A stretch of 64,000 bases of DNA from Syntrophomonadaceae bacterium (GTDB lineage: Bacteria; Bacillota; Dethiobacteria; DTU022; UBA8154): contig SLJK01000053.1 in the NCBI GenBank assembly GCA_007135125.1, forward strand, positions 3,974 through 67,973, in the 5' to 3' direction. How positions within the stretch are numbered: position 1 is the stretch's first letter; each line of letters begins with the position of its first letter. Made by a program: the position numbers and the translations under genes. The notes under the pieces are model-generated. The model was given only the letters and a program-made list of their open reading frames with translations, made no database searches and was not told the origin of the DNA. Below are positions 12,957 to 42,550 of this stretch, in pieces.

Positions 12957-13159
12957 CTCCTCCTAACCTGGTTACCTATCAGCAAAATAAAATATTGCTT
13001 CAGATAATTATTATCTTACTAATATAATTATACTATAATTGTTCTCATCCCGCAATGAATGTTCTTTATCCACTTATTTTCTCTTATATACCATTGCTCA
13101 TTTCGCTATCTTTCAACTTTATTCCTGCACCAGAATTTTCTTAATTTAACCATGTTAGC

Positions 13160-26140: not shown

Positions 26141-26275
26141 TAAGCCAGTTGCATCCCAGAAAGACAAATAAGATATAGTGAAAAAATAAGGAATTACGCT
26201 GAAAAACAACTGTTTACTTTTTGGGACTACAGCATAAATAATAATTATCAGAAAACTAAGGAGGTTTTATTCCCA

Positions 26276-26497: not shown

Positions 26498-26535
26498 ATA
26501 ATCTATCCCAAATACGCTCTATTCAATAGTTACTT

Positions 26536-27859: not shown

Positions 27860-29023
27860 ATGATGGCCCGGGAAGTATACCTCGATAACAGCTCTACTAC
27901 CCCCATGCACCCCGAGGTGCTAAAAGAAATGCAAACTTTACTGGAAAGAAAATACGGAAACCCTTCCTCCCTGCACCGCCTGGGTAACGATGCTGAAAGA
28001 ACTCTTAGTTCTTCTCGCCAGCTGTTGGCAGAACAGCTGGGGGTAAAAAGTGGGGAAATTTATTTTACTTCCGGCGGGACAGAATCCAACAATATGGCTC
28101 TAGCGGGGATAGCCCGCCGCAATTACAGGCGCGGCAAGCACCTGTTAACTTCCAAAATAGAACATCCCTCTGTGCTGGAACCACTAAAAAAACTAGAAGT
28201 GGAAGGTTTTCAGGTTACTTACCTTGAACCTGACCGTAATGGCCTTCTTGACCCTTTTCAGCTTGCCGAAACAGTAACCCCAAAAACAATACTGGTAAGC
28301 GTAATGCACGTCAATAATGAAATCGGCACCATCCAGCCTATCGCAGAAATTGCGGCCGCTATCAAACGAAAAAATCCACAAACCATAGTACATGTGGATG
28401 CGGTACAGTCATTTACAAGGCTTCCTCTATCCCCACGAGAACAGGGGATAGATGTTCTCAGCATAAGTGCCCATAAATTTCACGGACCCAAAGGTACCGG
28501 CGCCCTTTATATCCGTGGAGGTATACTGGTGGAGCCATTATTAGCAGGAGGCGAGCAAGAAAAGGGATTGCGGGCAGGCACAGAGAATACACCCGGCATC
28601 GCTGCCATGGCTTTGGCGGCCCGTCTGAACAGTGAGAACAGGAAAGAGAAAACCGCCCAGTCGAAAATTTTCAAGGAAAAGATGCTATCCTCTATTGAAA
28701 CGGCACATCCCTGGGCACAGATCAACGGCCCACGTAAAGCCGAAGGTGTACCTAATATACTCAATATTTCTTTCCCGGGGCTTAAAGGAGAAATTATCCT
28801 GCACGCCCTGGAAGAACATAATATTTTTGTTTCTACCGGCTCTGCCTGCCATTCCAGAAAAAATAAGCCCAGCCATGTTCTGGAAGCGATCGGCGCAGAA
28901 AAGGCCGCCCTGGATGGAGCTATTAGAATAAGCTTTTCCAGTATGAATACCCCGGAAGAAATAGAGTACGCCGCTTCCAAAATTCCGCAGGTTATTTCGG
29001 AACTTAAAGCTTTTATGAGCTAA
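27860..29023 (+). CDS. nifS: Cysteine desulfurase (NifS/IscS class, NifZ-like partner of ThiI)
   Basis: 387 aa; PLP-lysine motif (SISAHKFHGPKG), active Cys loop (STGSACHS). Confidence 0.85.
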   Translation: MMAREVYLDNSSTTPMHPEVLKEMQTLLERKYGNPSSLHRLGNDAERTLSSSRQLLAEQLGVKSGEIYFTSGGTESNNMALAGIARRNYRRGKHLLTSKIEHPSVLEPLKKLEVEGFQVTYLEPDRNGLLDPFQLAETVTPKTILVSVMHVNNEIGTIQPIAEIAAAIKRKNPQTIVHVDAVQSFTRLPLSPREQGIDVLSISAHKFHGPKGTGALYIRGGILVEPLLAGGEQEKGLRAGTENTPGIAAMALAARLNSENRKEKTAQSKIFKEKMLSSIETAHPWAQINGPRKAEGVPNILNISFPGLKGEIILHALEEHNIFVSTGSACHSRKNKPSHVLEAIGAEKAALDGAIRISFSSMNTPEEIEYAASKIPQVISELKAFMS

Positions 29024-29329
29024 AAGGTTGTTCACCTAGAATACTTTTATAATGCAGAGTAGCGTTAAAATAGCTCTTTTTTTGTTGCAATAAATTTAAG
29101 ACACACTCTCTCAAATGAAGGAACGATAGAGATCTTGTAAATTTTACACGACTAGAAAATTATGATAAGATAAATATAAAGAAGGTTGAATAATGAAAAT
29201 TCTTTTGGCAAGAGATTCAAATAGGTGGTAGCAACTGCTTAGCTAACCATTCATCTCCACAAAATCTAAGAAAAATGGAAAGATCAAAAGCATAATTGTA
29301 AAATAATGAGATAGGGAGGTGACGCAAAG

Positions 29330-29416
29330 GTGGATTGGAATATTATTTTTATCGGCTTATTCATCATGGCACTTATCATAAGTATAATAGTAGCAAAAGA
29401 TAATCCCACCGATTAA
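29330..29416 (+). CDS. 28-aa hydrophobic small protein (MDWNIIFIGLFIMALIISIIVAKDNPTD), GTG start with strong SD
   Basis: RBS AGGGAGGTGA 8 nt upstream of the GTG; single predicted TM helix; located in the convergent intergenic region between nifS and uspA. Confidence 0.35.
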   Translation: MDWNIIFIGLFIMALIISIIVAKDNPTD

Positions 29417-29493
29417 ACTTAAGGTAAACCGTATTCCGACATTATTTGCCATACTCCCCCCAAAAAGCTTATTATTGCTTTCCTGGCTGAAGT

Positions 29494-29958
29494 TTATTTA
29501 ACAACCAACACCTTTTTTTCACAATTCTGCACGACTGCATTACTAACACTTCCCAGCATTATACCCCAACCATCTCCTCTGCCTCTACTGCCAATTACAA
29601 CCAAATCAAAATTTCCTTTTGTAGCTGCCTCACATATAGTTTTTGCAGGGTGCCCTTCTTTTAACATTGTACTTACCTCAATATTTTTTCTTTTAAAAAC
29701 CTCTGCAGCGGTCTCCAAAACCTTTTTTCTTTCTTTACTCTCCTTCTCATCCAGGTTTTCCAAATGTTTACGCATTTCCGTTTCAGTTACGGCTGATTCA
29801 CCATCAGATAAATACCACGATGATTTAGCATATTTTCTCTTATACGTATGAAGCAGTGTAATAACAGCAACTTCTTTCATAGCCTCAGCAAGTTTGGCCG
29901 CTTCTTCTACCACTCGATTACTATTTTCAGAACCATCTGTGCAAACTAAAATTTTCAT
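29494..29958 (-). CDS. Universal stress protein (UspA family)
   Basis: 154 aa; Usp ATP-binding motif (VVIGSRGRG...GSVS). Confidence 0.85.
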   Translation of the reverse strand: MKILVCTDGSENSNRVVEEAAKLAEAMKEVAVITLLHTYKRKYAKSSWYLSDGESAVTETEMRKHLENLDEKESKERKKVLETAAEVFKRKNIEVSTMLKEGHPAKTICEAATKGNFDLVVIGSRGRGDGWGIMLGSVSNAVVQNCEKKVLVVK

Positions 29959-30059
29959 AGAAGTATTCCTCCTTTCCCATATTATCTGTCAAAGCAGGTT
30001 GTTATTTTAATTCCATAATTATTCGAATAATCCTGCCTGTTACAAATTAACGCTATTAA

Positions 30060-31448
30060 CTAACGATAGGATAGAATATCGCCTTCCGCCTTTTTTCCCA
30101 CCCTAACGTTACCGTCCTTAAATTCATTGGCCAGTTTTATCCAGCGACATGAAAGAATGTCAAGGTGTTCAGCAATATCCCCTTCCAAAGTTTGTTCTGC
30201 ACCCGGATGTGTTGGAAAAGCTCCGCAATCTTTGATCATCCTTCTAAGAGATGCAGGTGCATCTATTATAGGACAGGGAGCCAGATGGTTGTCGTTAAAG
30301 GGTTGTTCTTTCTGATAAGCTTTAAAAAAAGGATTCAATAAAACCTCTTTCAGGCTTTTCCCTTTGATGTTATCTACAGCAAAATGCACAAAAGCACACG
30401 GCTCCACATCACCTGCTGCATTTATATGAAAGTATTGCCTCCCTCCGGCAATACACCCTTTTGTATACTCTCCATCGTTCCAAAAGTCTGCAATAAATAT
30501 GGGCTTGTTTTTTCTCAGTTCCCTAATCCTTTTTACCAACCAGAGCCTTTGTTCCGGCGTAATCATCAGGTCAATATTAGGGTTTCGCCCTACAGGAATA
30601 TAGTGAAAGGACCAGATATAAATAATCCCCTTCTCGATGAGAAAATCAATAAATTCATCGCTGAAAAGCTCATATACATTTTTCGTGGTAACTGTTAGTG
30701 AAGCTCCGCTAAAAACCCCTCTTTCACGCAGGAGATCCATTGAATTGATCGCCTTATCAAAAGTACCCGCTCCCCTGCGAGCGTCAGTGCTATCACGCCA
30801 ACCTTCAAGACTTATGGTAGGCGTGAGGTTAGCCAGTTCCGCAAGACGATCTGCCGTTTTTTCATCAATCAGTGTTCCATTAGTATATACCATGAATACT
30901 GAATCTGTATGCTCAGCAGCTATTTCCAGCAGGTACGGATAGCAAAAAGGTTCTCCTCCTGAAAGAACAATCCAGTGTATACCCAGTTCCCTCGCTTCTG
31001 TTATAATGCGGTTTAAAAGCTCTGGTTCCAGGCGGTCAACCTTGTTGTATTCACCAGCCCAGCAACCCTCACAGCGCAGATTGCAGGCGGAAGTAGGATC
31101 AATCAGAATTAAGCAGGGAACGGAAACACCCATTTCACTGGATATTTTTTCCCTTTTGGAACGGCCCAGAAAGGTGCCATTTATTACCCAGGAATTGATG
31201 GCATTAGATAACATCCTAGGATTACAAACGATTCGCTGTGCCTGTTCCATAACAGGTAAATTATCTTGGAAATGATTTTTTAAGGATCTCACAATATTAA
31301 TATGCTCAGGAATTACAGCTACCTTTTCCAAAAAATTTAATATAGTAAATATATTTTTTTGCGGTTCCCTGGAAATATAACCGATAGCCTTCTCTACAGC
31401 ATACTCAGCAGCCTGCTTCTTAACCGATTCGAATGCCACCTTCCTCAT
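30060..31448 (-). CDS. Radical SAM/SPASM-domain protein with about 110-aa N-terminal extension (RRE-like); maturase-type enzyme of unknown substrate
   Basis: 462 aa; CNLRCEGC (CxxxCxxC) at residues about 121-128; C-terminal SPASM-like Cys motifs (CIAGGRQYFHINAAGDVEPCAFVHF, CPIID, CGAF). Confidence 0.75.
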   Translation of the reverse strand: MRKVAFESVKKQAAEYAVEKAIGYISREPQKNIFTILNFLEKVAVIPEHINIVRSLKNHFQDNLPVMEQAQRIVCNPRMLSNAINSWVINGTFLGRSKREKISSEMGVSVPCLILIDPTSACNLRCEGCWAGEYNKVDRLEPELLNRIITEARELGIHWIVLSGGEPFCYPYLLEIAAEHTDSVFMVYTNGTLIDEKTADRLAELANLTPTISLEGWRDSTDARRGAGTFDKAINSMDLLRERGVFSGASLTVTTKNVYELFSDEFIDFLIEKGIIYIWSFHYIPVGRNPNIDLMITPEQRLWLVKRIRELRKNKPIFIADFWNDGEYTKGCIAGGRQYFHINAAGDVEPCAFVHFAVDNIKGKSLKEVLLNPFFKAYQKEQPFNDNHLAPCPIIDAPASLRRMIKDCGAFPTHPGAEQTLEGDIAEHLDILSCRWIKLANEFKDGNVRVGKKAEGDILSYR

Positions 31449-31544
31449 CCTCCTTCTTTGCTGTTTTACATTTGCTATTTACTCAACCGAAAAGTCTTCT
31501 AGATCGTTTAGCAATCCAAACTTCGGGGCAACATCAAAAAAATT

Positions 31545-31979
31545 TCACTTATTATCTCGACATTGTTCACAATAACCAAAAAAACGAGTGGAGGAAGAAA
31601 CCACCAGAAAGTTTGTCTTACCATGCGATGGAGGAGTTACATTCCTTGAGTCTGATTCCAATATTTTACCGCAAGAAAGACAGATGAGGTGATTATGCCG
31701 GCCATCTCTTTTGAGTTCATAGCGGATGCGGCCATCCTCCAGAACTAGGGATTGTACGATAGAAAGCCTGGAGAAAAGCTCTAATGTTCGGTAGACCGTG
31801 GCTAACCCAAGTTGGGGACAATTATTTTTAGCTATACGGTATATTTCTTCCGCAGTTAGATGCTCTTCCTCTTTGCTGCCATATAGAACAAGCAGAACAG
31901 ATTTACGTTGAGGAGTAAGACGAAATTTGCTTTCTACAAGTTTTTCTGTCCCTGGAATTTTTTCGCAACGTGAAGACAT
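31545..31979 (-). CDS. Fur-family metalloregulator (Fur/PerR/Zur type)
   Basis: 144 aa; winged-HTH N-terminus; HNHLICLSCGKI and CEQC structural Cys pairs. Confidence 0.85.
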   Translation of the reverse strand: MSSRCEKIPGTEKLVESKFRLTPQRKSVLLVLYGSKEEEHLTAEEIYRIAKNNCPQLGLATVYRTLELFSRLSIVQSLVLEDGRIRYELKRDGRHNHLICLSCGKILESDSRNVTPPSHGKTNFLVVSSSTRFFGYCEQCRDNK

Positions 31980-32069
31980 AAATTTAATCCTCCCTGCTTA
32001 TATAGCTTGATCCTACCGAACAATAGAGCTAGTAAAAAATTGCTTTTCTTAGATTTACTGATAGGAATA

Positions 32070-32116
32070 GGTGACTGTTCAATCATCTTGGCTTCGATTA
32101 TGATAGAACAGTCACC
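32070..32116 (-). repeat. Strong stem-loop (11-bp perfect arms GGTGACTGTTC/GAACAGTCACC with extended imperfect pairing) between the DUF5320 gene and fur
   Basis: Exact reverse-complement arms read in sequence; no adjacent U-tract. Confidence 0.55.
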
Positions 32117-32156
32117 CAGGCAACATTCATTTATAATTTCTCAAATTACAGTAGGA

Positions 32157-32429
32157 TTAATCTTCATAATATTTAGCTACGTCTTCTAAATTATTTTCCA
32201 ACATTCTTAGCTGCTCTCTGAAATATTTTGCCTTTTCTTCTAGTAATCTTTTTTCTCCAACTGCTCTGCTACCGTAAAACAATGGTGTGCGGTATCCAGG
32301 CTTCCACCAACGCCTGCGCCCCTGCACAGGGTTGGCAAAGCCTGGCATTGGATATCCTGCACAGTAACCTGCAAACCTTCCTTTCCCAGAGCCAGACCCT
32401 AAGGGCCCTGTACCATCTCCACCAGGCAT
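32157..32429 (-). CDS. DUF5320-family small protein (Gly-rich N-terminus with GYCAGY motif, C-terminal coiled coil)
   Basis: 90 aa; MPGGDGTGPLGSGSGKGRFAGYCAGY...; paralog of 37903-38220; strong RBS (AAAAAAAGGAGGGA). Confidence 0.8.
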   Translation of the reverse strand: MPGGDGTGPLGSGSGKGRFAGYCAGYPMPGFANPVQGRRRWWKPGYRTPLFYGSRAVGEKRLLEEKAKYFREQLRMLENNLEDVAKYYED

Positions 32430-32520
32430 TCTCTAATCCCTCCTTTTTTTGTTATGTTCGAAGTACTCTGCACAAACATTTTGGACTTATATTCATATTA
32501 ATATTAAACAATATATTGGA

Positions 32521-32538
32521 CATATGTCAATTTCTATT
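32521..32538 (-). promoter_or_regulatory. Conserved box 1 (CATATGTCAATTTCTATT; minus strand carries TTGACA -35 then a TTAATA -10-like element 17 nt downstream), copy A
   Basis: 16 of 18 identical to 41204-41221; reverse complement AATAGAAATTGACATATG contains TTGACA. Confidence 0.55.
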
Positions 32539-32589
32539 AAAGGCTGAATAATTGTATAAGAAGCGCTTAGAACAAATAAGCAGCAATTT

Positions 32590-32614
32590 TTAATGATAAT
32601 GAGAATCTTTCTCT
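32590..32614. promoter_or_regulatory. Conserved box 2, Fur-box-like (TTAATGATAATGAGAATCTTTCTCT), copy A
   Basis: 20-bp core GATAATGAGAATCTTTCTCT identical to 41279-41298; 16/19 match to the classical Fur box GATAATGATAATCATTATC; 74 bp from box 1. Confidence 0.5.
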
Positions 32615-32694
32615 ACGATACGGTATACTTCTTATGATGTTAATAAGATTTAAGCAAAATCATAATTACACTATGAATAGCACTTAGGTTAAAA

Positions 32695-33303
32695 TTAAAC
32701 ATAGTAAATGTTGTCTGCCAATTCAATACATTCTTCTGAATCGTGTGTAACATAAAGGGTCGTCAGTATTAACTTCCTTTGCAGCCTCTTAAATTGACGC
32801 CTGAGTCGAATAACAATATTTTCATCGAGGCTGTTTAAAGGCTCGTCCATCAACAAAACACCTGGACGTGGAGCAAACGTTCTTGCTAATGCTACCCTCC
32901 GCTTTTCTCCACCGCTTAAATTTTGCGGGTAGCGATTTTCCAGGTGGGTGATTTCAAAAAGTTCCATCAATTCATCTACCTGTTCCTTTATTTTCTCTGG
33001 GGGAATTTTTTTTATTTTCAAACCGTAAGCAATATTATTGAAAACAGATAGGTGCGGGAACAAATGGAGGCCCTGGAACAGGTAACCAATATTTCTTTTT
33101 TGGGGTGGAACACAATCCATAGGTACATCGTTAAAAAAAACATACCCTTCATAAGCAATCAACCCTGCAACGATATTAAGCAAAGTCGTTTTGCCTGATC
33201 CTGTAGGGCCATAAATAACCCGCAATTCACCACGGTCAACCTTTAAAGAATAAGAACGTTCTACAAAACTTGGTTTAGCGTCGCATACTTTTATTTCAGG
33301 CAT
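32695..33303 (-). CDS. ABC transporter ATP-binding protein (NitT/TauT-like)
   Basis: 202 aa; Walker A GPTGSGKTT, signature LSGGEKRR, Walker B LLMDEP. Confidence 0.85.
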   Translation of the reverse strand: MPEIKVCDAKPSFVERSYSLKVDRGELRVIYGPTGSGKTTLLNIVAGLIAYEGYVFFNDVPMDCVPPQKRNIGYLFQGLHLFPHLSVFNNIAYGLKIKKIPPEKIKEQVDELMELFEITHLENRYPQNLSGGEKRRVALARTFAPRPGVLLMDEPLNSLDENIVIRLRRQFKRLQRKLILTTLYVTHDSEECIELADNIYYV

Positions 33304-34063
33304 CCGGGTTCCTCCATTTAGAAGTTAACTTATTTTCTATCAATAGAAATATTTTTTCTGAACAGAAACACAACAAAGATAAAATTAGTAAGCAAACAAT
33401 AATAATGTCGACTCTCAGTAAGCTTTCACCTTTCATTAATAATGATCCTAAACCAGTGGATATGGCTACCATTTCTGCAGCAATAATTACTCGCCAAGCC
33501 ATGCCGGCTTCCAGTTTTAAGCCCGTAAAAATGTTGGGTAATGCCAGCGGAAGCACTATGGTGGTTAAAACCTGCCACTCTGAAGCCCCCAGCATTTTTG
33601 ATGCTTTGACCAAACTTAGATCAACACTTTTCACACCCGTCATAGTGTTGTAAAGCATAGGGAAAAAAGCACAAATAAAGACAATCATCACCGGCAGTAA
33701 TTCATTAATACCTATCCATAGAATAAAAAGCGGCAACCATCCAATAGCAGGGATGGGGTAAAGAATGCTAATAATTGGACTAATATTGCTTCGAATAACC
33801 TCATTCCATCCCATAGCGATTCCTAAAACTAAACCGGTACAAGCTCCCAAGAAAAACCCGGCTGCCACTCTTAAAAAACTTGCCTTTACATGGTTAAATA
33901 GCAAACCTTCGCTTACTAGTAAACAAAAACACTTAAACACCTGTGAAGCAGGTGGAAATAAACTTTGATCTGGGAAAAAGTATCGTGAGCTAATTTCCCA
34001 GACGATAAACAGGAGAATAACAGGTTTAAGTGTATTTAAGTAAGAAATAATTATTTTAGCCAC
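33296..34063 (-). CDS. ABC transporter permease (NitT/TauT family)
   Basis: 255 aa; 6 TM; BPD_transp_1-type EAA-like loop; 8-bp overlap with the ATPase gene. Confidence 0.8.
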   Translation of the reverse strand: MAKIIISYLNTLKPVILLFIVWEISSRYFFPDQSLFPPASQVFKCFCLLVSEGLLFNHVKASFLRVAAGFFLGACTGLVLGIAMGWNEVIRSNISPIISILYPIPAIGWLPLFILWIGINELLPVMIVFICAFFPMLYNTMTGVKSVDLSLVKASKMLGASEWQVLTTIVLPLALPNIFTGLKLEAGMAWRVIIAAEMVAISTGLGSLLMKGESLLRVDIIIVCLLILSLLCFCSEKIFLLIENKLTSKWRNPDA

Positions 34064-34075
34064 GAAAGCACCTAT

Positions 34076-35083
34076 TTAAAAATTTTGAAAAAGAATTTCT
34101 TCTGCAGGAAAGGAGCTTTGAATATAATCCAAGGTTTCCAGGTAATCTATAGCTTCCTGAATTTCTTCGTGCTGCAGCTTTACACAATATTTATGATTGG
34201 TCAACGCTTTTTCCAAAATAGCAAGTGTAAATCTATAATTATCCCGGGGGAAAGCGTCACCTGTTTGTTCAATTATACCCGATGTTACATTAAGGTGATT
34301 GAAAATGATCTCGGCTGTTTCATGTGGATTATCATTAACCCAAGCAGTTGCCTTTGCGTTTACCTGTAGCATTTTTTCTACCAAGTCTGGATTTTCTTTA
34401 ATTAATTCATCTTTAACCACAAGGACACTGCCTTGCATTTCAGGCCATATTTCTGCGCCAGAAATAAACATTTTAAATCCACAGGCTTCGGCCAATGAAG
34501 CATAATGCTCAGGCAACATTACTACATCCAGATCACCTTTAATAAACAAAAGTATCTGTTTATGAGGGGTTAATCGTGATATATTTTCCAAGACTCTTTC
34601 TCTATCAAGATCGTGTTTTTCAATAAGGAGGTGAAGAGCTACATCTGCGGCACTGCCTTCCCTGGGACATCCTATACGAATATCTTTTTTCTCTAAATCG
34701 TTTAAAGTCTTGATTTCTGTTGGATTAACCACCATTCCATATCCATATTTATGAGTACCAGCAATAATTTTCAGATCAACCCCGCCATTAGCATAAGCTA
34801 TAATAGCCGGAGTCAGGCAAATATAAGCAGCCTGTACCTCCCCGCGGGTCAGTGCTGCAGCAAGTGCCAAACCCGTTTCATAGGTTTCATATGTGCCAAC
34901 ATTTATGCCTTCTTCTGCGAACCAGTTCTTTTCTAACGCAATAAAAGCAGCAGCAGCATGACTGTTCTGCTCCAGAGCTAGTCCAATTTCCCCCTGTTTC
35001 TCTCGGCATCCGGAAAAGACAAGAAAACTGTTCAACAACAATAACAATATTATAAATGATGCACTTTTTTTGACAAAAACCAC
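34076..35083 (-). CDS. ABC transporter substrate-binding lipoprotein (NMT1/THI5-like, NitT/TauT family)
   Basis: 335 aa; signal peptide + lipobox (FSGC); periplasmic binding fold. Confidence 0.75.
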   Translation of the reverse strand: MVFVKKSASFIILLLLLNSFLVFSGCREKQGEIGLALEQNSHAAAAFIALEKNWFAEEGINVGTYETYETGLALAAALTRGEVQAAYICLTPAIIAYANGGVDLKIIAGTHKYGYGMVVNPTEIKTLNDLEKKDIRIGCPREGSAADVALHLLIEKHDLDRERVLENISRLTPHKQILLFIKGDLDVVMLPEHYASLAEACGFKMFISGAEIWPEMQGSVLVVKDELIKENPDLVEKMLQVNAKATAWVNDNPHETAEIIFNHLNVTSGIIEQTGDAFPRDNYRFTLAILEKALTNHKYCVKLQHEEIQEAIDYLETLDYIQSSFPAEEILFQNF

Positions 35084-35105
35084 GGCACCTTTCCCCCTCC
35101 GTTAA

Positions 35106-35849
35106 TTAAGTACTCAATGGACAGAACCAAGACAATTTCAGTAGCCGCGATGAGCCTGCAATCGTTGTTCCGTAATAAATTATTTTCTCCTTATCCATAA
35201 ACATGTTGATAGTTCTGTTGGTAAGGACAGTGCCGGTGACCAAAGCCAGGTCACACCACTCCAGGTTTTCAGAAGTAGAAGCTTCTCCTTCCACAGAAAC
35301 CTGCCCAACTTTCTTTCCCCAGTTTTCCCTATCGAGATCGTTAATGCGCAGCGGGAAATTAACTTCCAGAACTTCCGCCATTCGCGGTTGAAAACCCACC
35401 AGGCTGATCTTTGGATGAACCAGGTGACAATAATTTTTCAGATATACCGGTAATTCACGGGCACATGACTGGGGCTGCTCATTTTTGCAATGCTCGCTGG
35501 CCGGGATCAATCTCAGGTATCGCATAGTAGCGTTTAAAGCAGCTATAAAAATGGTTATTTCTTGGCTGTTATGTAAGGGAAGCTTCAAAACTTGGGAAAG
35601 GCTCCCATGAAAACTACCTACACTACTGCTGTATGCCTGTCCTGCTACTCCCTTAAAGACAGCCTCTGTTAAGGATTCTTTGCCTTTTAATAAAGCATAG
35701 TCTTTCTCCTTTGGGTTACCAAGGGCTTGCTCGGGAGAAAGTGGGCGAGCCGTGATTTTTACCTGGTCCTCAAAAAGATTGTTATCGATGAGGATATTTT
35801 TCCACGTTGACCATAGTTTTTTATATATATCTGTTTCTGTAAAGAACAT
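35106..35849 (-). CDS. DUF364/DUF4213-like protein (putative heavy-metal chelation / Rossmann-like domain)
   Basis: 247 aa; C-terminal LVTGTVLTN...YGTTIAGSS pattern typical of DUF364; first gene of the ABC operon. Confidence 0.5.
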   Translation of the reverse strand: MFFTETDIYKKLWSTWKNILIDNNLFEDQVKITARPLSPEQALGNPKEKDYALLKGKESLTEAVFKGVAGQAYSSSVGSFHGSLSQVLKLPLHNSQEITIFIAALNATMRYLRLIPASEHCKNEQPQSCARELPVYLKNYCHLVHPKISLVGFQPRMAEVLEVNFPLRINDLDRENWGKKVGQVSVEGEASTSENLEWCDLALVTGTVLTNRTINMFMDKEKIIYYGTTIAGSSRLLKLSWFCPLST

Positions 35850-35974
35850 AGCTAAGAACCTCCTGTTTTTATTTGAAATTTGAAATATCAGTTAATAATT
35901 GAATATCATAAAGCGTTATACTTAGTTTAATATAACGAATTGCAAAAAAAACACGGTAATGCTTAACTTTTCTT

Positions 35975-36000
35975 TTTTCTATAAAACTTTTCTATAAAAC
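35975..36000. repeat. Tandem 13-bp direct repeat TTTTCTATAAAAC x2, followed by a weak hairpin/A-run (weak terminator for the minD-like operon on the minus strand)
   Basis: Read directly; lies between the second MinD-FeS gene stop and the DUF364 gene start. Confidence 0.4.
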
Positions 36001-36050
36001 ACAAAAAAACCCTTACGGGACATAAAGAAAATATTTATACAAAAAGAGCA

Positions 36051-36920
36051 TCAGATTGCTAAATATTTTTTGACCTGCTCCCAAGTTTCGTTAATTCTCT
36101 TTGCTGCAGGACTATCCCCGTATTCCACAACTGATACACCTTGGAGCATTGCTTCCGTAACCTTCCTATCCAAAGGAACTTTACCTGCTACGGGCACTTC
36201 AGCGGAATTACAGTACTCTTCTATCTTGTATGTATTCTCTTCGTCCAAATCATAGCGATTAATACAGACCAGTGCAGGTACTTTAAAATGCCTGCAAACT
36301 GCCAGCACACGCTCCATGTCATGAACTCCAGGCAAAGTAGGTTCGGTCACTACCAGTGCAACACTAACACCTGCCAAAGAGGCTATAACAGGACAGCCGA
36401 TACCTGGCGGGCCATCGGTAATAATACGCTGTTTGCTTTCTTCATTAGCAACCTCCTTGGCTTTATTCCGGACCAGGGTAACCAACTTGCCGGAATTCTC
36501 CTCCGCTATCCCGAGGCGTGCGTGCACCAAGGGGCCATGAGCAGTTTGAGAAATAAACCACTGCCCTGAAATCACCTCTTCATAAACTATAGCTTCTTCA
36601 GGACAGGAATGGTAGCAAACACCGCATCCTTCGCAGGAAAGGAGATCAACATCGTAAGCATTCGAAATTGCATCAAAACGACAAAGTTCACGGCACAAAT
36701 TACAGCCCGTGCACTTATCATGATTAATAAATGCTTTCTTCGAAGCCCGAAAATCATGTCGCTCCAAGAGGGCAGGATGCATTATTAGACTCAGGTTAGC
36801 AGCATCAACATCACAATCTGTAAAGACGCTATCCGTGGAAAGAGCAGCAAAACAACCCGTAATAGAAGTTTTGCCGGTGCCACCTTTTCCACTTATAACA
36901 GATATTTCTTTCATATTCAT
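36051..36920 (-). CDS. MinD/ParA-type P-loop ATPase with inserted 2x[4Fe-4S] ferredoxin domain
   Basis: 289 aa; deviant Walker A SGKGGTGKTS; CTGCNLCRELC and CEGCGVCYHSCP ferredoxin motifs. Confidence 0.85.
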   Translation of the reverse strand: MNMKEISVISGKGGTGKTSITGCFAALSTDSVFTDCDVDAANLSLIMHPALLERHDFRASKKAFINHDKCTGCNLCRELCRFDAISNAYDVDLLSCEGCGVCYHSCPEEAIVYEEVISGQWFISQTAHGPLVHARLGIAEENSGKLVTLVRNKAKEVANEESKQRIITDGPPGIGCPVIASLAGVSVALVVTEPTLPGVHDMERVLAVCRHFKVPALVCINRYDLDEENTYKIEEYCNSAEVPVAGKVPLDRKVTEAMLQGVSVVEYGDSPAAKRINETWEQVKKYLAI

Positions 36921-36939
36921 TTCCCTTCCATCCTGCTTT

Positions 36940-37788
36940 TTATTTATAAAGCTTCATCCGTAACAGGATTTGATCCCACAATTCCCTGAACCGTTTTTCC
37001 CAGAATGAGGAATGCATTGCTATTGGTTCACCCCTGGCATAAAGAACAGCTAACTCTCTGTCCCAGGGAATCTGCATAAGAACAGGCAGTCCTTCTTCCC
37101 GGCAGTATCTCTCAACATCTCTATTGCCCACATCTGCCTGATTAATAAGCACACCTGCTGGAACATGAAGCTTTTTTAACATCTCCACGGCCAGTTCCAG
37201 GTCGTGAAGACCAAAGGGAGTAGGTTCCGTTACCAACAGGCAAAAATCACTTTCCCGTATTGTTTCAACTACCGGGCAGGAAGTACCAGGCGGAGCATCA
37301 ATCAGAACATGTTTTAAAGGATCAATTTTCTTTTTTAGGGCATTGATGACTGGAGGGGACATGGCCTCTCCAGGATTTAAGCTCCCTTGTAAAAAATCAA
37401 ATCCGTATGCTTTTCCCTCTTCTATCAGGCCTATACCACGAGGTACTTCTGAAATAGCTCCTTTCGGGCAAAAGTAGCTGCAGCCTCCACAGCCATGGCA
37501 AAGTTCGGGGAAAACCAGTACACTTTCTCCAAGAACTGCCAGGGCATTGAAGGCACATATCTCTGAACACCGTCCACATTTGCTGCATTTTTCTTCATTT
37601 ATCTCAGGAACTAAAATATTGACCGTTTCAGAAATATTAAAATCAGGTTTCAGAAAAATGTGCGCATTAGGTTCCTCCACATCGCAGTCTATAAACTGAA
37701 GCTCTTCCTGGCTTTGCGTCAGGGCCAGGTTAACAGCAACGGTGGTTTTCCCTGTTCCTCCTTTTCCACTGGCTATCGAAATAATCAT
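36940..37788 (-). CDS. MinD/ParA-type P-loop ATPase with inserted 2x[4Fe-4S] ferredoxin domain (paralog)
   Basis: 282 aa; SGKGGTGKTT; CSKCGRCSEIC and CHGCGGCSYFCP. Confidence 0.85.
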   Translation of the reverse strand: MIISIASGKGGTGKTTVAVNLALTQSQEELQFIDCDVEEPNAHIFLKPDFNISETVNILVPEINEEKCSKCGRCSEICAFNALAVLGESVLVFPELCHGCGGCSYFCPKGAISEVPRGIGLIEEGKAYGFDFLQGSLNPGEAMSPPVINALKKKIDPLKHVLIDAPPGTSCPVVETIRESDFCLLVTEPTPFGLHDLELAVEMLKKLHVPAGVLINQADVGNRDVERYCREEGLPVLMQIPWDRELAVLYARGEPIAMHSSFWEKRFRELWDQILLRMKLYK

Positions 37789-37862
37789 TTATATCTCTCC
37801 AATTTATAGTGCTTATCATAATGCTGCAAAGTGTAAACTAGTACATCAAAAATTATGTACCG

Positions 37863-37895
37863 ACCCGGGAGGCTGTGGACACTTTACTCCCGGGT
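37863..37895 (-). repeat. 9-bp perfect-stem hairpin (ACCCGGGAG-15nt-CTCCCGGGT) 8 nt after the DUF5320 stop, with a T5 run 10 nt further on the minus strand; possible intra-operon attenuator
   Basis: Read directly; T-run is displaced from the stem, so terminator strength is doubtful. Confidence 0.35.
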
Positions 37896-37902
37896 CCTGA
37901 CC

Positions 37903-38220
37903 TTACTGGCTCTTCTGCTCATTTTCTAAATCAGCCAGCTTTTTTTCAATTTCCTCAAGTTCTGATCTTACGGCTTCTGCCTGCTGCTTTAGATAGTCAG
38001 CCTCTTCTTCAGGTTCAGGCTCCGGAACAAGCATCCAGGGCGGATAAGGAAAATAGCCCGCACCATACCGGTGGCATGGCCCAAACCAGCCAGGGTAAAA
38101 ACCTGCAGCAGCAGCAGCACTATTGGTATAAGCACCGCCTCTAAAGCCACCGCTTCCTGGAACCCAACCAGTGCCCCTTTTCCAAAATCCGGGGCCGTAC
38201 CAATATCTACCTCTTGGCAT
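37903..38220 (-). CDS. DUF5320-family small protein (second paralog)
   Basis: 105 aa; Gly/aromatic-rich N-terminus, one Cys, acidic linker, C-terminal coiled coil (LKQQAEAVRSELEEIEKKLADLE). Confidence 0.8.
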   Translation of the reverse strand: MPRGRYWYGPGFWKRGTGWVPGSGGFRGGAYTNSAAAAAGFYPGWFGPCHRYGAGYFPYPPWMLVPEPEPEEEADYLKQQAEAVRSELEEIEKKLADLENEQKSQ

Positions 38221-38306
38221 CGTTCTTCCCTCCCTTCAGTTAATATGTTCCCTTTCTCCCTAATTGTTTGCGCAACTTTCATTTAATACTTTTTGCCGGT
38301 CATATT

Positions 38307-39077
38307 TTACTCTTCGTGACAGTCATGAGTCCCACCATGCTGACCATGCTCACAAAGGCTTTCCCCTCCTGCCAGGCTGCCATAAAGATAGCTGTTGATA
38401 GCTTCTTCTACCGGTCCCGTAACACCGATAATTGTTTTGATCTCCTGTTCAGCAAAGAGATTCTGAGCCCGAGGACCCATTCCGCCGGCAATCACACAAT
38501 CAACACCTTTTTCCGCCAGGAAACGAGGCAAAAAGCCGGGCTGATGGCCTGGATTAAGGACGGTAGTTTTATTCGTCGCTACACCGCCTTCAATATCTAC
38601 CAGGGTATAGGCAGAGCAGCGTCCAAAATGCTGTGCTACTTCTGTTCCCTCAGTAGCGACAGCAACTTTAAGATCCTGCGAAAGGTGTTCGGTCCCCCTT
38701 CTCTCAGAGGAGGAGTCCAATCCAGCATGGGGGCTCACGGTTGCCTCGACCACCGGGCTGCAGTTCCCATGAAGGTACTGTTCCAGGGCTTCAGTTAGAG
38801 GCATTTCTGAAATTGAATAGACCTCCATCTCAGCTGATTTTAAAATGCTTGAGGCGTTAGGTCCCACATCACCTGTAAGAAGCACATCGGGTTTTTGTTC
38901 TAGCAAAAACTGTGCTGCCTTAACTCCCGCCCCACTACCCTCCACGGAGCCGGGGTTAGGCATAAAAGTCCATGTTTCTTTTTCCGTATCGAAAAAAGCA
39001 TAAAATGGGCACCTTCCGAAACGCGGTTCAAGTGAGGAGTTCTCTTCTTTACCGTTAGCACTAATAGCTATAATCAT
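38307..39077 (-). CDS. Tandem NifX/NifB-C-terminal-like (dinitrogenase FeMo-cofactor-binding fold) domain protein
   Basis: 256 aa; two copies of the ...HFGRC(P/S)xYxxVD...GVDxVIAGGMG... pattern; Cys/His-rich tail CEHGQHGGTHDCHEE. Confidence 0.8.
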   Translation of the reverse strand: MIIAISANGKEENSSLEPRFGRCPFYAFFDTEKETWTFMPNPGSVEGSGAGVKAAQFLLEQKPDVLLTGDVGPNASSILKSAEMEVYSISEMPLTEALEQYLHGNCSPVVEATVSPHAGLDSSSERRGTEHLSQDLKVAVATEGTEVAQHFGRCSAYTLVDIEGGVATNKTTVLNPGHQPGFLPRFLAEKGVDCVIAGGMGPRAQNLFAEQEIKTIIGVTGPVEEAINSYLYGSLAGGESLCEHGQHGGTHDCHEE

Positions 39078-39079
39078 TA

Positions 39080-39880
39080 TTACATTCCTCCTGTTTGTGT
39101 TTTCATTTGATGTGATTCCAGCAATTTATGGAACAGATCACTGCTATATTCCTCTACAGAGCCACTATCACAGCATTTTGCCAGACTTTGATCAAGAGGA
39201 AGACTGGCTAAGAATGGAATACCCGTCAAACTTGCCACTTCCGCTCCTTTACTCTTACCAAATATTTCTATTTTTGTTTGACAATGGGGGCAATACTGAT
39301 AGCTCATATTTTCCACCAGGCCCAAGATTGGGATATCCATGGCACCTGCCATCTTCATGGCCTTTTTGACGACCATTATCGCCAGATCCTGGGGTGAACT
39401 AACAATAACCAACCCATCTAATGAAATGGACTGCATAACGGTGAGCGGAACATCTGACGTGCCTGGTGGTAGGTCAATAAAAAGATAATCCAACTCACCC
39501 CACTCCACTTCTCTCCAAAATTGACTTACTGTATTACCGATGAGCGGCCCGCGCCAGATAACAGGGTCATCTTCATGCATTAACAACAAATTTAATGACA
39601 TAATCTTTATACCCAGTTTACTCTGGGTAGGAGCAAGACCTTTTGCCCCGTCAGAAACCTTTAATCCAAACATTTTTGGTATACTGGGGCCGGTAATATC
39701 TGCATCCAAGATACCCACTTTATACCCGTGTTTGCTGGCACCCGCCGCTAGCAGGGCAGTTATCGAGGATTTTCCCACTCCTCCTTTCCCGCTCATAACG
39801 GCAATGACATGTTTAACATCAGGGCGGATTATTTTTTCCGGTCTTTTGCTTTCTTGATTTTGAGAAGCTTTACAATTCAC
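39080..39880 (-). CDS. apbC: Mrp/NBP35/ApbC-family Fe-S cluster carrier ATPase
   Basis: 266 aa; SGKGGVGKSS Walker A; conserved CPHC motif (YQYCPHCQ). Confidence 0.85.
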   Translation of the reverse strand: MNCKASQNQESKRPEKIIRPDVKHVIAVMSGKGGVGKSSITALLAAGASKHGYKVGILDADITGPSIPKMFGLKVSDGAKGLAPTQSKLGIKIMSLNLLLMHEDDPVIWRGPLIGNTVSQFWREVEWGELDYLFIDLPPGTSDVPLTVMQSISLDGLVIVSSPQDLAIMVVKKAMKMAGAMDIPILGLVENMSYQYCPHCQTKIEIFGKSKGAEVASLTGIPFLASLPLDQSLAKCCDSGSVEEYSSDLFHKLLESHQMKTQTGGM

Positions 39881-39903
39881 TCAAACAGATCTCCTTTCGA
39901 CTC

Positions 39904-40692
39904 TCAATTTTTTATTAACAGGTGTGTAAAAAGGTAGGGATTAAGCACTTCAATATGAGTTCCCTTCATCCCCAGCGAACGAGATTCTATTACACCAGCA
40001 CTTTCAAGCTTGCGCAGGGCATTAACAATAACAGAACGGGTTATACCCGCTTGGTCAGCAATTTTGCTTGCCACCAACAACCCTCTATCGTTTTGAAGTT
40101 CATTAAAAACTTCCTCCAATGCCTCATGCTCCGAATATGAAAGTGTACTAATAGCCAACTTGCTGATTTCCTGTTGTCGTATTTCCTCTTCCGATTTTTC
40201 CGCCTTGGAACGCAGTATCTCCATACCCACTACCGTTGCACCTGTTTCGGAAAGAATAAGATCTTCGGGTTCAAAAACTTCATTAAAGCGAGCCAGCAGT
40301 AAGGTACCCAACCGCTCCCCGGCGCCTAAAATCGGTATGACAGTAACTAATTTTCCTGTAAACAAGCATTCTGCATCTTCCCAAAAAACACATCTATTAC
40401 GTTTCTGTTTAAGGTTGTCCCTCAATTCATCATCCCTTAAAAGAAACTGGTTATACTTTTCCGGGAAATACATCTTTTTTAAAACCCGATTAACCATGAT
40501 TTCACACTCGTATTCATCGACAAGAGCATATCCCATAATAATACCTGCTCTGTCCACGATATACACATTTGCCTTAATTACATCTTTGAGCACCATGGCA
40601 ATTTCCTTAAAATCAACGTACCTGCCTTCACCTTTTTGAAAAATTTTGTTAATAGAACGGGTTTTTTCCAACATTTGAGAGGCTATCATCAT
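39904..40692 (-). CDS. codY: GTP-sensing pleiotropic repressor CodY
   Basis: 262 aa; near-identical C-terminal wHTH to B. subtilis CodY (ASKIADxxGITRSVIVNALRKLESAGVIESRSLGMKGT); GAF-like N-domain. Confidence 0.85.
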   Translation of the reverse strand: MMIASQMLEKTRSINKIFQKGEGRYVDFKEIAMVLKDVIKANVYIVDRAGIIMGYALVDEYECEIMVNRVLKKMYFPEKYNQFLLRDDELRDNLKQKRNRCVFWEDAECLFTGKLVTVIPILGAGERLGTLLLARFNEVFEPEDLILSETGATVVGMEILRSKAEKSEEEIRQQEISKLAISTLSYSEHEALEEVFNELQNDRGLLVASKIADQAGITRSVIVNALRKLESAGVIESRSLGMKGTHIEVLNPYLFTHLLIKN

Positions 40693-40740
40693 TATCGCCC
40701 TCTTTCTTATTTAAATTATTACACATTTATAACTCTCCCT

Positions 40741-41118
40741 TCAGGTCTTATCTTTGAGCCGGCTTCTGTAATCAAGTATAGCCTGGTGCAGCGCCTCTGC
40801 CCCAAGATTGGAACAGTGAACCTTGGGGTCGGGTAGCCCCCCCAGTGCCTCAAGGACATCAAGATCTTCTATTTGCATAGCTTCATCGAGGCTTTTCCCC
40901 TGTGCTAACTCAGTTAACACACTGCTTGTAGCTATAGCTGCAGGGCAACCATAAATCTGAAATTTAATGTCACAGATACGCTCTTCCTTTACTTTTATAT
41001 TGATGCACAGATAATCACCGCAGGAAGGATCACCAATGGCTCCTATACCGTCAGCATCAGCTATAGTGCCTACATTGCGGGGATTCGAAAAATGTTCTAA
41101 TACTTTCTCAGCGTACAT
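40741..41118 (-). CDS. iscU: IscU/NifU N-terminal-like Fe-S scaffold protein
   Basis: 125 aa; conserved scaffold Cys residues (GDPSCGD, GCPAAIA, HCSNLG). Confidence 0.8.
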   Translation of the reverse strand: MYAEKVLEHFSNPRNVGTIADADGIGAIGDPSCGDYLCINIKVKEERICDIKFQIYGCPAAIATSSVLTELAQGKSLDEAMQIEDLDVLEALGGLPDPKVHCSNLGAEALHQAILDYRSRLKDKT

Positions 41119-41203
41119 GAAACCATCCTTTCATAAATTACCGCTAATTATTTTTTTCTCCATTATGTACTTATGTCCAATTAAATGTTAACCATAAAGT
41201 GTG

Positions 41204-41221
41204 CATATGTCAATTACTATT
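41204..41221 (-). promoter_or_regulatory. Conserved box 1 (CATATGTCAATTACTATT; TTGACA -35 on the minus strand), copy B upstream of iscU
   Basis: 16/18 identical to 32521-32538; the flanking leader is also similar (ACTTATgTcCAaTTAAA vs ACTTATaTtCAtATTAA). Confidence 0.55.
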
Positions 41222-41270
41222 TTGAACTTTCTGCGCCTTTGGGGAGCGAATAGGCAGGAATATACTTGAA

Positions 41271-41298
41271 TTAATGCTGATAATGAGAATCTTTCTCT
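41271..41298. promoter_or_regulatory. Conserved box 2, Fur-box-like (TTAATGCTGATAATGAGAATCTTTCTCT), copy B
   Basis: 20-bp core identical to copy A; 75 bp from box 1; lies in the divergent serC/iscU intergenic region. Confidence 0.5.
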
Positions 41299-41446
41299 GT
41301 TTATAGCCTGCTGGCAAATTAGAAAGATTTTCTTACAGCTGTTTTTATTTAAGTCAAGATCAGGTATAATGAACTAATCTGGTAGTTCTCTTGCAATCTC
41401 CACAGGAACCGGAGAAGAACAATCGTTTACTCAAATAATTCTTATA

Positions 41447-42550
41447 TTGATGGGAGGATTTCTCGTGCCGTACAGAATCTTTAATTTTAATCCTGGCCCA
41501 GCCACTCTTCCGCTGGAAGTTTTGGAAGAGGCCCGAGAAGAAATGTTAAACTACCGCAACACCGGGCTTTCTATAATGGAAATGAGCCACCGCTCCCCTG
41601 AATTTGAAGAAATCATAGACTCTGCTCAGTCACTTTTCCTGGAATTGGCAGAACTCTCAACTGCATACCAGGTACTTTTTCTCCAGGGCGGAGCCAGCTT
41701 GCAATTTTCCATGATCCCCTTCAATTTTCTAACCTCTGATACCACTGCTGATTATATTATCACCGGCAGTTTTGCCAAAAAAGCCATGCAGGAGGCGGCC
41801 AAGATAGGAAACACAAACGTGGCTGCCAGTAATGATGTAACAAACTATACTACCATTCCTCGCCCTGAAGACATTACTCTAAGCCCCAACAGCGCCTATC
41901 TTCACTTTACCACTAATAATACTATATATGGCACACAATGGAATTATGTGCCGGATAGCGGCACAGTTCCCCTCATTGCTGATATGTCCAGCGATATACT
42001 CTCCCGCAAAATAGAGATGCATAGATTTGCTTTGGTTTATGCCGGTGCCCAAAAAAACCTGGGTCCTGCCGGAGTTACTGCGGTTATTATCCATAAAAGC
42101 CTGTTAGAAAAAGCCTCTGCTTCTTTACCTGCAATGCTTAGTTACAAGACTCATGCTGAAAACGGATCCCTTTTCAATACTCCCCCCTGTTTTCCTATAT
42201 ACATTGTAAAACTGGTTCTGGAATGGATTAAGAAAAAAGGCGGCCTCAGCGCTATTCAGGAAACAAATGAGCAGAAAGCTGACCTTCTTTATCAGGCCAT
42301 CGATAACAGTGGTGGTTATTATATTGGGCATGCTGCAAAAGAGGACCGTTCTATCATGAACGTAACTTTCCGGCTCCCGGAAGAGGGACTGGAAAAAACT
42401 TTTCTGGAGGAAGCCGCTGCAGAGGGGCTTAAAGGGTTAAAAGGCCACCGCTCCGTGGGTGGTATAAGAGCTTCTATCTATAACGCCATGCCTTATGAAG
42501 GCTGTGAAGCCCTTGCCCAGTTTATGAAGGAATTCCCAAAAAAACACTAG
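41447..42550 (+). CDS. serC: Phosphoserine aminotransferase
   Basis: Class V aminotransferase family, N-terminal FNFNPGPATLP; ORF-track start is TTG at 41447, but the true start is more likely GTG at 41465, preceded by GGAGGA. Confidence 0.85.
   Translation: MMGGFLVPYRIFNFNPGPATLPLEVLEEAREEMLNYRNTGLSIMEMSHRSPEFEEIIDSAQSLFLELAELSTAYQVLFLQGGASLQFSMIPFNFLTSDTTADYIITGSFAKKAMQEAAKIGNTNVAASNDVTNYTTIPRPEDITLSPNSAYLHFTTNNTIYGTQWNYVPDSGTVPLIADMSSDILSRKIEMHRFALVYAGAQKNLGPAGVTAVIIHKSLLEKASASLPAMLSYKTHAENGSLFNTPPCFPIYIVKLVLEWIKKKGGLSAIQETNEQKADLLYQAIDNSGGYYIGHAAKEDRSIMNVTFRLPEEGLEKTFLEEAAAEGLKGLKGHRSVGGIRASIYNAMPYEGCEALAQFMKEFPKKH

Follow-up and report, generated by a model that had tools for sequence, protein, structure and literature searches.

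A probable Bacillota version of the orange protein complex gene cluster with a Fur-box-like promoter module

A 64,000-nucleotide stretch of contig SLJK01000053.1 from a Syntrophomonadaceae bacterium (hereafter the window) contains adjacent genes for an IscU-like protein, CodY, an Mrp/NBP35 ATPase, a protein with two Nitro_FeMo-Co domains (NifX2), a DUF5320 protein (DUF5320a) and two MinD-ferredoxin ATPases (MinD-Fer4 #1 and #2). This cluster is probably the Bacillota (Dethiobacteria-like) version of the ORP, or “orange protein complex”, cluster, a module conserved among strictly anaerobic Bacteria and Archaea. We assign it so because it matches the MrpORP model, the orange protein structure 2WFB, the ORP gene order, and the cysteine/histidine motifs of the “Di-Nase” domain. 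As such it is a member of a known system, not a new one. What is new is a conserved promoter module with a Fur-box-like 21-mer, common to the cluster and a nearby DUF5320-Fur operon, together with ferredoxin-DUF5320 fusions in other phyla and a DUF5320 N-terminal half that resembles the tail of IssA, an iron-sulfur storage protein, in composition. The ORP cluster was reportedly first described by Fievet et al. in 2011. A preliminary description of this DNA had called the gene combination uncharacterised and functionally unassigned; the first part does not stand, as the ORP cluster has been studied since 2011, although its physiological role is indeed still unclear (PMC8359166).

Open reading frame (ORF) calls place the cluster on the minus strand at 36051–41118, with intergenic gaps of 48, 23, 2, 86, 114, and 19 nt from the IscU-like gene to MinD-Fer4 #2 (Table 1). 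Eight co-directional genes had been described previously; the shared direction holds and the count is seven. Pfam upholds every one of the earlier domain assignments; equivalog calls were made with NCBIfam cut-offs. The contig belongs with uncultured metagenome-assembled genomes of soda-lake type (GCA_007122375.1 and others).

In Desulfovibrio vulgaris Hildenborough, the ORP genes are laid out as orp5-orp4-orp3, orpR, and orp7-orp8-orp9, and raised redox potential switches the orp operons off (PMC6345978; PMC8359166). Orp3 and Orp4 are MinD-like ATPases with two [4Fe-4S] motifs each, Orp5 is a small protein, Orp8 is the orange protein, and Orp9, or MrpORP, joins a P-loop domain to a Di-Nase domain (PMC6345978). 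The proteins form a physical complex, and MrpORP binds Fe-S clusters and can transfer them in vitro to Orp3/Orp4; an ATP-dependent role in handling Fe-S or metal-sulfur species, along the lines of the ATP-driven assembly and delivery machine of the preliminary description, agrees with this biochemistry (PMC6345978).

The Mrp/NBP35 protein of the window carries the deviant Walker A motif GKGGVGKS and a CXXC motif (CPHC). Its top NCBIfam match is NF041136, MrpORP (positions 3–233, 318 bits; ApbC, 199), and it represents the P-loop half of MrpORP. The C domain of the adjacent NifX2 matches the same model at positions 253–364 (122 bits). The Di-Nase motifs CxHFGHCE and CDH (Pardoux 2019, PMC6345978) have counterparts in NifX2, AQHFGRCS and SLCEH, that are kept in 38 orthologues. 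The N domain of NifX2 (residues 3–106) is Orp8-like and matches the D. gigas orange protein, PDB 2WFB (E = 1.5e-9), as well as MTH1175 and TM1816, and the C domain also matches TM1290 and PH0822. NifX2 ends in a short Cys/His-rich tail, and Pfam detects no radical S-adenosylmethionine (radical-SAM) domain in the protein. Downstream, the order small gene-ATPase-ATPase is that of orp5-orp4-orp3. At the head of the cluster, the IscU-like protein has the scaffold cysteines (DPSCGD, YGCPAA, VHCSNL) and scores below every NCBIfam equivalog cut-off (NifU_clost, 167 against 188).

Each of the two ATPases is a MinD/Mrp-class P-loop protein of the Orp3/Orp4 type with an inserted 2×[4Fe-4S] ferredoxin domain, and MinD-Fer4 #1 has more than 8000 homologues at E < 1e-10. 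The eight ferredoxin cysteines are 100% conserved in both paralogues, and the lysine of the deviant Walker A motif is retained in both. Nearly invariant, too, is a cysteine of the switch-II motif PPGxxCP (Cys171 of PPGTSCP in paralogue 1, 0.99; Cys176 of PPGIGCP in paralogue 2, 1.00), at a position where Mrp has an aspartate; the cysteine of the DCD motif is conserved at 0.96 and 0.73, respectively. When an AlphaFold2 (AF2) model of paralogue 1 (pLDDT, the predicted local distance difference test, 94.6) was compared with the PDB by Foldseek, the closest folds were ATPase-type HypB, ApbC, archaeal MinD, and Cfd1. Neither PDB sequence comparison nor Foldseek found the ferredoxin insert in a solved structure. 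A NifH-like identity for the ATPases was rejected, as sequence searches gave no match and the fold ranked 31 or lower, leaving an analogy only. No nif genes were found among the flanking genes annotated in the window or among the recurrent neighbours screened.

Co-conservation was established by a neighbourhood census of the best 80 loci, one genome per species, that are 47–72% identical to MinD-Fer4 #1. These include loci from Dethiobacter, Syntrophomonadaceae, Omnitrophota, Ignavibacteria, Dehalococcoidia, Planctomycetota, Desulfobacterota, NC10, Bathyarchaeia, Thermoplasmatota, and methanogens, and all 80 belong to anaerobic lineages of Bacteria or Archaea as judged by organism name. All translated ORFs were searched against the window proteins and against a DUF5320 profile made from the matches, and a gene was counted as near if it lay on the same strand within 5 kb of the ATPase pair. 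Paralogue 2 directly follows paralogue 1 in all 80 genomes, and this fixed order suggests that the two form an obligate heterodimer. A NifX-type gene is near the pair in 75 of the 80 genomes, DUF5320 in 53 (mostly upstream), Mrp in 42, the IscU-like gene in 30, and Fur in 17 (18 if anywhere in the locus is counted); DUF364, from a unit with an ABC transporter that follows the cluster in the window, is linked in two. The set is thus kept elsewhere, as the preliminary description had presumed, with the exception of CodY, which it had included and which is near the pair in no genome (0/80).

This co-occurrence is far above chance. Within the same loci, sequence at most 5 kb from the pair (620 kb in total) holds 138 NifX, 86 DUF5320, 42 Mrp, 29 IscU-like, and 19 Fur genes, against 1, 0, 2, 0, and 0 in the sequence more than 6 kb away (283 kb in total), while the control family, ABC ATPases, is found three times in each. 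The genes of relatives that adjoin the cluster include Fur, DtxR-FeoAB, and DUF5320.

Domain shuffling is evident within the conserved set. The ORP-like and Di-Nase-like NifX subtypes occur together in 63 of the 80 loci; they are fused to each other in six, with two further loci showing the reverse order, and Mrp is fused to Di-Nase in three (3/80), all Desulfobacteraceae, as in Desulfovibrio. Ferredoxin-DUF5320 fusions were found in two loci, one confirmed by Pfam (L040, 32 bits) and the other called by phmmer domain assignment only (L059). These 2×[4Fe-4S] fusions (L040, 878–1360; L059, 7442–7951) lie beside the ATPase pair in other phyla; in L057, L014, L015, L018, and L076, ferredoxins are likewise joined either to DUF5320 or to one of its halves, the Gly/Arg-rich or the coiled-coil one, and in L023, L041, L047, and L063 this place is filled by a plain ferredoxin of 57 aa. 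Desulfovibrio Orp5, which is rich in Cys, may belong among such ferredoxin-type small proteins.

The nearest homologues of DUF5320a (L007–L010, 56–64% identical) lie outside ORP-type clusters, either with a CsoR-family regulator and a copper-type P-type ATPase or in the order DUF5320-Fur-DUF5320-DtxR/FeoA-FeoA-FeoB. Since such close homologues occur in unrelated metal-related contexts, they were rejected as cluster markers; in general, DUF5320 seems to accompany genes of metal homeostasis.

Upstream of the IscU-like gene lies a module consisting of box A, a 21-nt element, and a predicted sigma-70-type promoter whose −35 block is invariant across four aligned promoter regions. Box A has three mismatches to the 7-1-7 Fur box TGATAATNATTATCA, and matches this good number 12 in the window against 4.7 expected. 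The preliminary description had placed a single distinctive promoter module in front of the cluster; the module is there, but it is not unique, as an equivalent one is present at 32.5 kb, upstream of the DUF5320b-Fur operon. The second copy of box A is identical, and box and promoter block are shifted equally from one copy to the other (8683/8684 nt), their spacing being kept. Two related species, too, have exact box A sequences at the corresponding places between genes (L098, 1646–1666; L091, 7377–7397), where the surroundings have diverged. The Fur-family protein encoded behind the second copy is a candidate binder of box A (top NCBIfam matches Fur, 110 bits, and PerR, 85 bits, both below cut-off). 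From this common operator we infer that the cluster and the DUF5320b-Fur operon form a shared iron- or redox-responsive regulon.

Within the cluster, the 71-nt segment 37840–37910 that contains a GC-rich hairpin folds with a free energy of −27.5 kcal/mol (z = −3.5), and in the sister species L091 a single change, from G-C to G-U, leaves the pairing intact, overall divergence there being low. The hairpin is not a canonical terminator, since no T-run adjoins it; it may be an attenuator or an RNA stabiliser ahead of the ATPase pair. A scan for intrinsic terminators found none in the gaps between cluster genes, its matches equalling those in shuffled sequence and all falling within coding regions, and Rfam gave no riboswitch or other known RNA in 29000–42500. 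Given the hairpin and the 114-nt gap between DUF5320a and the ATPase pair, transcription may be attenuated or restarted before the ATPase genes, and one transcript for the whole cluster is plausible only.

Table 1. Positions of the cluster genes, regulatory elements, and other features discussed, numbered from the first letter of the window
Feature	Positions	Strand	Details
IscU-like	40741-41118	-	125 aa; PF01592 E=4.9e-42
CodY	39904-40692	-	262 aa; PF06018 + PF08222
Mrp/NBP35 ATPase	39080-39880	-	266 aa; PF10609 E=3.4e-91
Double Nitro_FeMo-Co protein (NifX2)	38307-39077	-	256 aa; PF02579 x2
DUF5320 (DUF5320a)	37903-38220	-	105 aa; PF17253, 34 bits, cut-off 27
MinD-Fer4 #1	36940-37788	-	282 aa; CbiA/ParA + 2x Fer4
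MinD-Fer4 #2	36051-36920	-	289 aa; CbiA/ParA + 2x Fer4
Box A AGAGAAAGATTCTCATTATCA	41278-41298	-	21 nt; Fur-box-like; ~64 nt upstream of -35 hexamer
Predicted sigma-70-type promoter TTGACA-17-TAACAT	41185-41213	-	Consensus scan; inside conserved block AATTGACATATG
GC-rich hairpin, 10-bp stem	37862-37896	-	Directly after DUF5320 stop codon
Box A copy 2, identical	32594-32614	-	Upstream of DUF5320b-Fur
Predicted promoter TTGACA-18-TAATAT	32501-32530	-	Upstream of DUF5320b-Fur
DUF5320b	32157-32429	-	90 aa; canonical DUF5320, MPGGDGTGP...GYCAG; PF17253 E=1.6e-16
Fur-family regulator	31545-31979	-	144 aa; PF01475; candidate box A binder
acs operon	2558-12956	-	CooC, CODH, ACS, both corrinoid iron-sulfur protein (CFeSP) subunits, AcsE methyltransferase (pterin-binding), methylenetetrahydrofolate reductase (MTHFR)
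ACS (acetyl-CoA synthase)	7797-10001	-	acs operon
CODH (carbon monoxide dehydrogenase)	10035-12005	-	acs operon
CooC	12171-12956	-	acs operon

Several points weigh against the ORP assignment and its Fur-linked elaboration. The role of the ORP system is itself unclear, cell division being a published suggestion (PMC8359166). The two halves of MrpORP lie here on two adjacent proteins and score below the 450-bit cut-off of the model (Mrp, 318). No sigma-54 enhancer-binding protein is encoded among the flanking genes annotated between 29.5 and 44.8 kb, and −24/−12 matches number 30 against 33 expected, with none upstream of the cluster; as this signal is not above chance, a sigma-54 promoter for the cluster was rejected. 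The strong hairpin and the 114-nt gap precede the ATPase genes, the fit of box A to the Fur consensus is loose, and its location at about −100 is atypical of Fur repressor sites. The equivalence of DUF5320 with Orp5 is unproven, gene position being the one argument for it: Orp5 homologues in the literature are small [2Fe-2S]-binding proteins, and a link between DUF5320 and ORP was not found there. In a 2016 study by Maiti, Orp5 homologues are said to have several cysteines, whereas DUF5320 has one.

CodY, a global regulator that senses GTP and branched-chain amino acids, is genuine by NCBIfam equivalogs (NF003170, 343 against a cut-off of 255; TIGR02787, 316 against 267), and its place near the other genes varies among relatives. 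An 81% identical CodY in L098 stands in the order NifX-IscU-CodY-MOSC, after which comes an incomplete gene, probably Mrp. In L093/L094, from a Dethiobacteria metagenome-assembled genome, the order is DtxR-FeoA-FeoB-DUF5320-IscU-Mrp-NifX2-ATPase-ATPase-CodY, and a near relative, L095, shares this order except that CodY is missing. Further CodY genes, with about 70% identity, are found at other places in the genomes that carry them. A near-identical contig (L002; ENA ERZ27301262 k141_2495747) lacks window positions 39175–40755 (1581 bp), a deletion that takes out CodY and most of Mrp and joins IscU in-frame to the last ~27 residues of Mrp in a 152-aa ORF. Single-nucleotide polymorphisms cluster at the junction, and the deletion reflects either genuine strain variation or a chimeric assembly.

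CodY autoregulation was considered and rejected, as CodY-box matches are at chance (7 against 7.2 expected) with none in the cluster promoter. CodY was also rejected as a part of the machine, on its absence near the pair in the census, its shifting position in relatives, and the natural deletion variant; it is best regarded as an operon resident, in this sublineage only, that stands outside the machine. A gene for a MOSC domain (molybdenum-cofactor-sulfurase C-terminal type) lies between CodY and Mrp in L098 (3680–4117) and L091 (2–130), and L098 has an extra single-domain NifX gene before IscU; these extra NifX and MOSC genes are absent from the window.

Other functions can be read from the same genes. 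One is an iron-sulfur store, in which the NifX-type domains would nucleate thioferrate-like or polynuclear Fe-S species, as does IssA of Pyrococcus furiosus, under Fur control; the cationic half of DUF5320, rich in Gly, aromatic residues, and Arg, would bind the anionic species in trans, and the ATPases would load or mobilise them with ATP and electrons. We consider this possible but unlikely. IssA, the thioferrate iron-sulfur storage protein of P. furiosus, consists of an IPR003731 domain and a 70-aa tail (Vaccaro 2017, PMC5524996) that contains 15 Gly, 14 aromatic, 7 cationic, and 11 Pro residues and one Cys, with an isoelectric point (pI) of 10.7 (PMC5524996). The N-terminal 62 aa of DUF5320a come close to this composition (15 Gly, 17 aromatic, 7 cationic, 8 Pro, one Cys, pI 10.0) and are followed by an acidic, coiled-coil-like part. 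The store is also favoured by the Fur, DtxR, and FeoAB genes that adjoin the cluster in many genomes, and by Methanococcus voltae, where the IssA homologues Mvol_0689 and Mvol_0693 (four loci apart), FeoB, and DtxR are co-induced with thioferrate-like iron accumulation. The likeness to IssA is, however, one of composition and not of sequence, and the tail of NifX2 is acidic and Cys/His-rich rather than cationic; the combination of an IPR003731 domain with a long cationic Gly/aromatic tail was not found in NifX2, the window protein examined for it. Moreover, in Desulfovibrio ORP binds a Mo-Cu cluster and Di-Nase a [3Fe-4S] cluster, neither of them thioferrate (PMC6345978).

A broader form of this proposal is quite unlikely in our estimate: DUF5320, both NifX types, and a heterodimeric MinD-ferredoxin ATPase would constitute a near-universal, Fur/DtxR-controlled Fe-S buffer of anaerobes, with DUF5320 as a free-standing equivalent of the IssA tail and the ATPase pair reductively loading or unloading a polynuclear store. 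If true, it would unite the ORP literature on Desulfovibrio with the IssA literature on Pyrococcus and methanogens and would give ORP a function.

A role in cell division or spatial positioning, with the MinD-like ATPases as redox-gated positioning proteins, appears decidedly improbable. The cell-division hypothesis for ORP draws on morphological defects of a D. vulgaris orpR mutant and on the polar location of MrpORP (PMC6345978; PMC8359166), and archaeal MinD is among the top sequence and fold matches of the ATPases. The metallochaperones HypB (ATPase type), ApbC, and Cfd1 are also among the top folds, however; the recurrent neighbours are Fe-S and iron genes, with no minC, minE, or fts among them, and the phenotype in Desulfovibrio, being that of a regulator mutant, is indirect.

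The physiological standing of the ORP Mo-Cu cluster is debated, which counts against the handling of molybdenum, tungsten, or copper sulfides, an explanation in which the ORP-like domain would carry a thiometallate cluster and the DUF364 and ABC transporter genes would supply the metal, and which we hold to be very improbable. The D. gigas orange protein does bind [S2MoS2CuS2MoS2]3- (PMC6345978), the MOSC-domain gene lies between CodY and Mrp in sister species, and the nearest DUF5320a homologues are near CsoR-family regulator and copper-type P-type ATPase genes. Next after the cluster come DUF364 (“putative heavy-metal chelation”) and an ABC transporter whose ATPase has its top match in the tungstate protein WtpC; this match is far below cut-off, however (210 against 440), and the binding protein is of the NMT1/SsuA-like kind and no tungstate binder. 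Nor is the DUF364-ABC unit regularly linked to the pair, as seen in the census, and it is deleted in the strain variant L006.

These genes belong to a block downstream of the cluster (29494–35849, minus strand) that comprises, in this order, DUF364, the gene for the NMT1/SsuA-like binding protein, those for a permease and an ABC ATPase, a canonical DUF5320 gene, Fur, the gene for a radical-SAM/SPASM protein of 462 aa, and Usp; its DUF364-ABC part is kept in the sister species L091. The near-identical contig L006 (Logan SRR13089370_8307) lacks window positions 29690–36058 (6.4 kb), with the end of MinD-Fer4 #2 joined to the Usp gene at a 10–13-nt microhomology, AAAAAATATT. DUF364, the ABC transporter, DUF5320b, Fur, and the radical-SAM/SPASM gene are lost, which indicates that the block from DUF364 to the radical-SAM gene is dispensable and separable from the ORP genes. 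Further along, a Fur-box-like sequence, AAATAATAATTATCA, at 26236–26250 lies ~44 nt upstream of a small NifU-like gene (about 26294–26515, plus strand), which is followed by ThiI (26678–27856) and a cysteine desulfurase (27860–29023).

A machine dedicated to assembly and delivery for the nearby Ni-Fe-S CODH/ACS, the client named in the preliminary description, is hardly credible and was rejected, since the complete acs operon, although in the same window (2.5–13 kb) and in an acetogen-type anaerobe with high Fe-S demand, is 23 kb off with clpC, mcsB, and transporter genes intervening and has its own CooC ATPase, since CODH is near the ATPase pair in 1 of the 80 genomes and ACS in none, and since the cluster occurs in Omnitrophota, Ignavibacteria, and Dehalococcoidia regardless of a nearby CODH gene. 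The operon covers the carbonyl branch of the Wood-Ljungdahl pathway, and the bacterium probably lives as an acetogen or by syntrophic oxidation of acetate. At the head of the operon, 46 nt upstream of the cooC start (13002–13016), there is a perfect 7-1-7 palindrome, AGATAATTATTATCT; it is Fur-box-like (two mismatches) and hints at metal regulation of the acs operon.

For the ORP-type cluster that we favour, the gene content points to the following working. Fe-S clusters would be built on the IscU-like scaffold, and an Mrp/NBP35 dimer with a bridging [4Fe-4S] cluster on its CXXC motifs would load both MinD-ferredoxin ATPases. These would pair as an ATP-dependent heterodimer with four ferredoxin clusters, and the conserved switch-region cysteines could provide a further metal site. 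Together with the ORP-like and Di-Nase-like NifX domains and DUF5320, the heterodimer would hold, reduce, or pass on labile iron-sulfur or metal-sulfur species. We infer that the ATP-gated heterodimer carries electrons, and perhaps a bridging metal site, and acts on a cluster held by the two NifX-type domains. Expression would start at the sigma-70 promoter, with the 21-nt Fur-box-like operator upstream.

Few anaerobe-specific gene sets that lack a settled function are as widespread as the ORP module: the ATPase by itself has more than 8000 relatives, and its copies in phyla from Omnitrophota to Bathyarchaeia show 50–70% identity. The window adds to the module a member on a sigma-70 promoter with a Fur-box-like operator. 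The fixed paralogue order, the switch-region cysteines, the two NifX subtypes, the DUF5320 partner, and the Fur/DtxR/Feo neighbours are testable leads that, if true, would direct its physiological output toward iron-sulfur homeostasis rather than cell division or CODH maturation.

Among known systems, the FeMo-co carriers NifX, NafY, and the C-terminal domain of NifB share the PF02579 fold, which binds complex Fe-S cofactors, and the pairing of PF02579 proteins with a dimeric, cluster-bearing P-loop ATPase is reminiscent of NifH with NifX and NifEN; unlike in the nitrogenase carriers, the PDB matches here are stand-alone ORP, MTH1175, and TM1290, not NifX or NafY. The ATPases share the deviant Walker A motif, the PPGT(S) switch II, and the fold with Mrp/NBP35/ApbC/Cfd1 and ATPase-type HypB, SIMIBI metallochaperones that deliver metals or clusters in a nucleotide-dependent manner (5AUQ, 8ZKC, and 6G2G are the best Foldseek matches). 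They differ from these in having a ~65-aa ferredoxin insert, no CXXC motif, and an invariant cysteine for the Mrp aspartate.

With IssA the cluster has in common the IPR003731/PF02579 domain, a single-Cys segment rich in Gly, aromatic, cationic, and Pro residues with a pI of about 10, and a link to iron supply in both gene context and regulation. Unlike in IssA, the cationic segment is located in a separate protein, DUF5320, with an acidic coiled-coil half, the NifX2 tail is Cys/His-rich, and there are dedicated ATPases.

Compared with the D. vulgaris orp genes, the cluster in the window is on one strand, with a sigma-70-type promoter and a Fur-box-like operator, whereas theirs form two divergent sigma-54 operons under OrpR and IHF. 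Its Di-Nase domain is fused to an ORP-like domain and that of Desulfovibrio to Mrp; it also has IscU-like and CodY genes, and its small protein is a DUF5320, the sameness of which with Orp5 is unproven. The two clusters are alike in their adjacent paralogous pair of MinD-type ATPases with two [4Fe-4S] motifs each, in the small protein gene directly upstream of this pair, in an ORP-type PF02579 protein, and in an Mrp/NBP35 P-loop domain with CXXC and a Di-Nase domain with the same Cys/His motifs, and both are confined to anaerobes.

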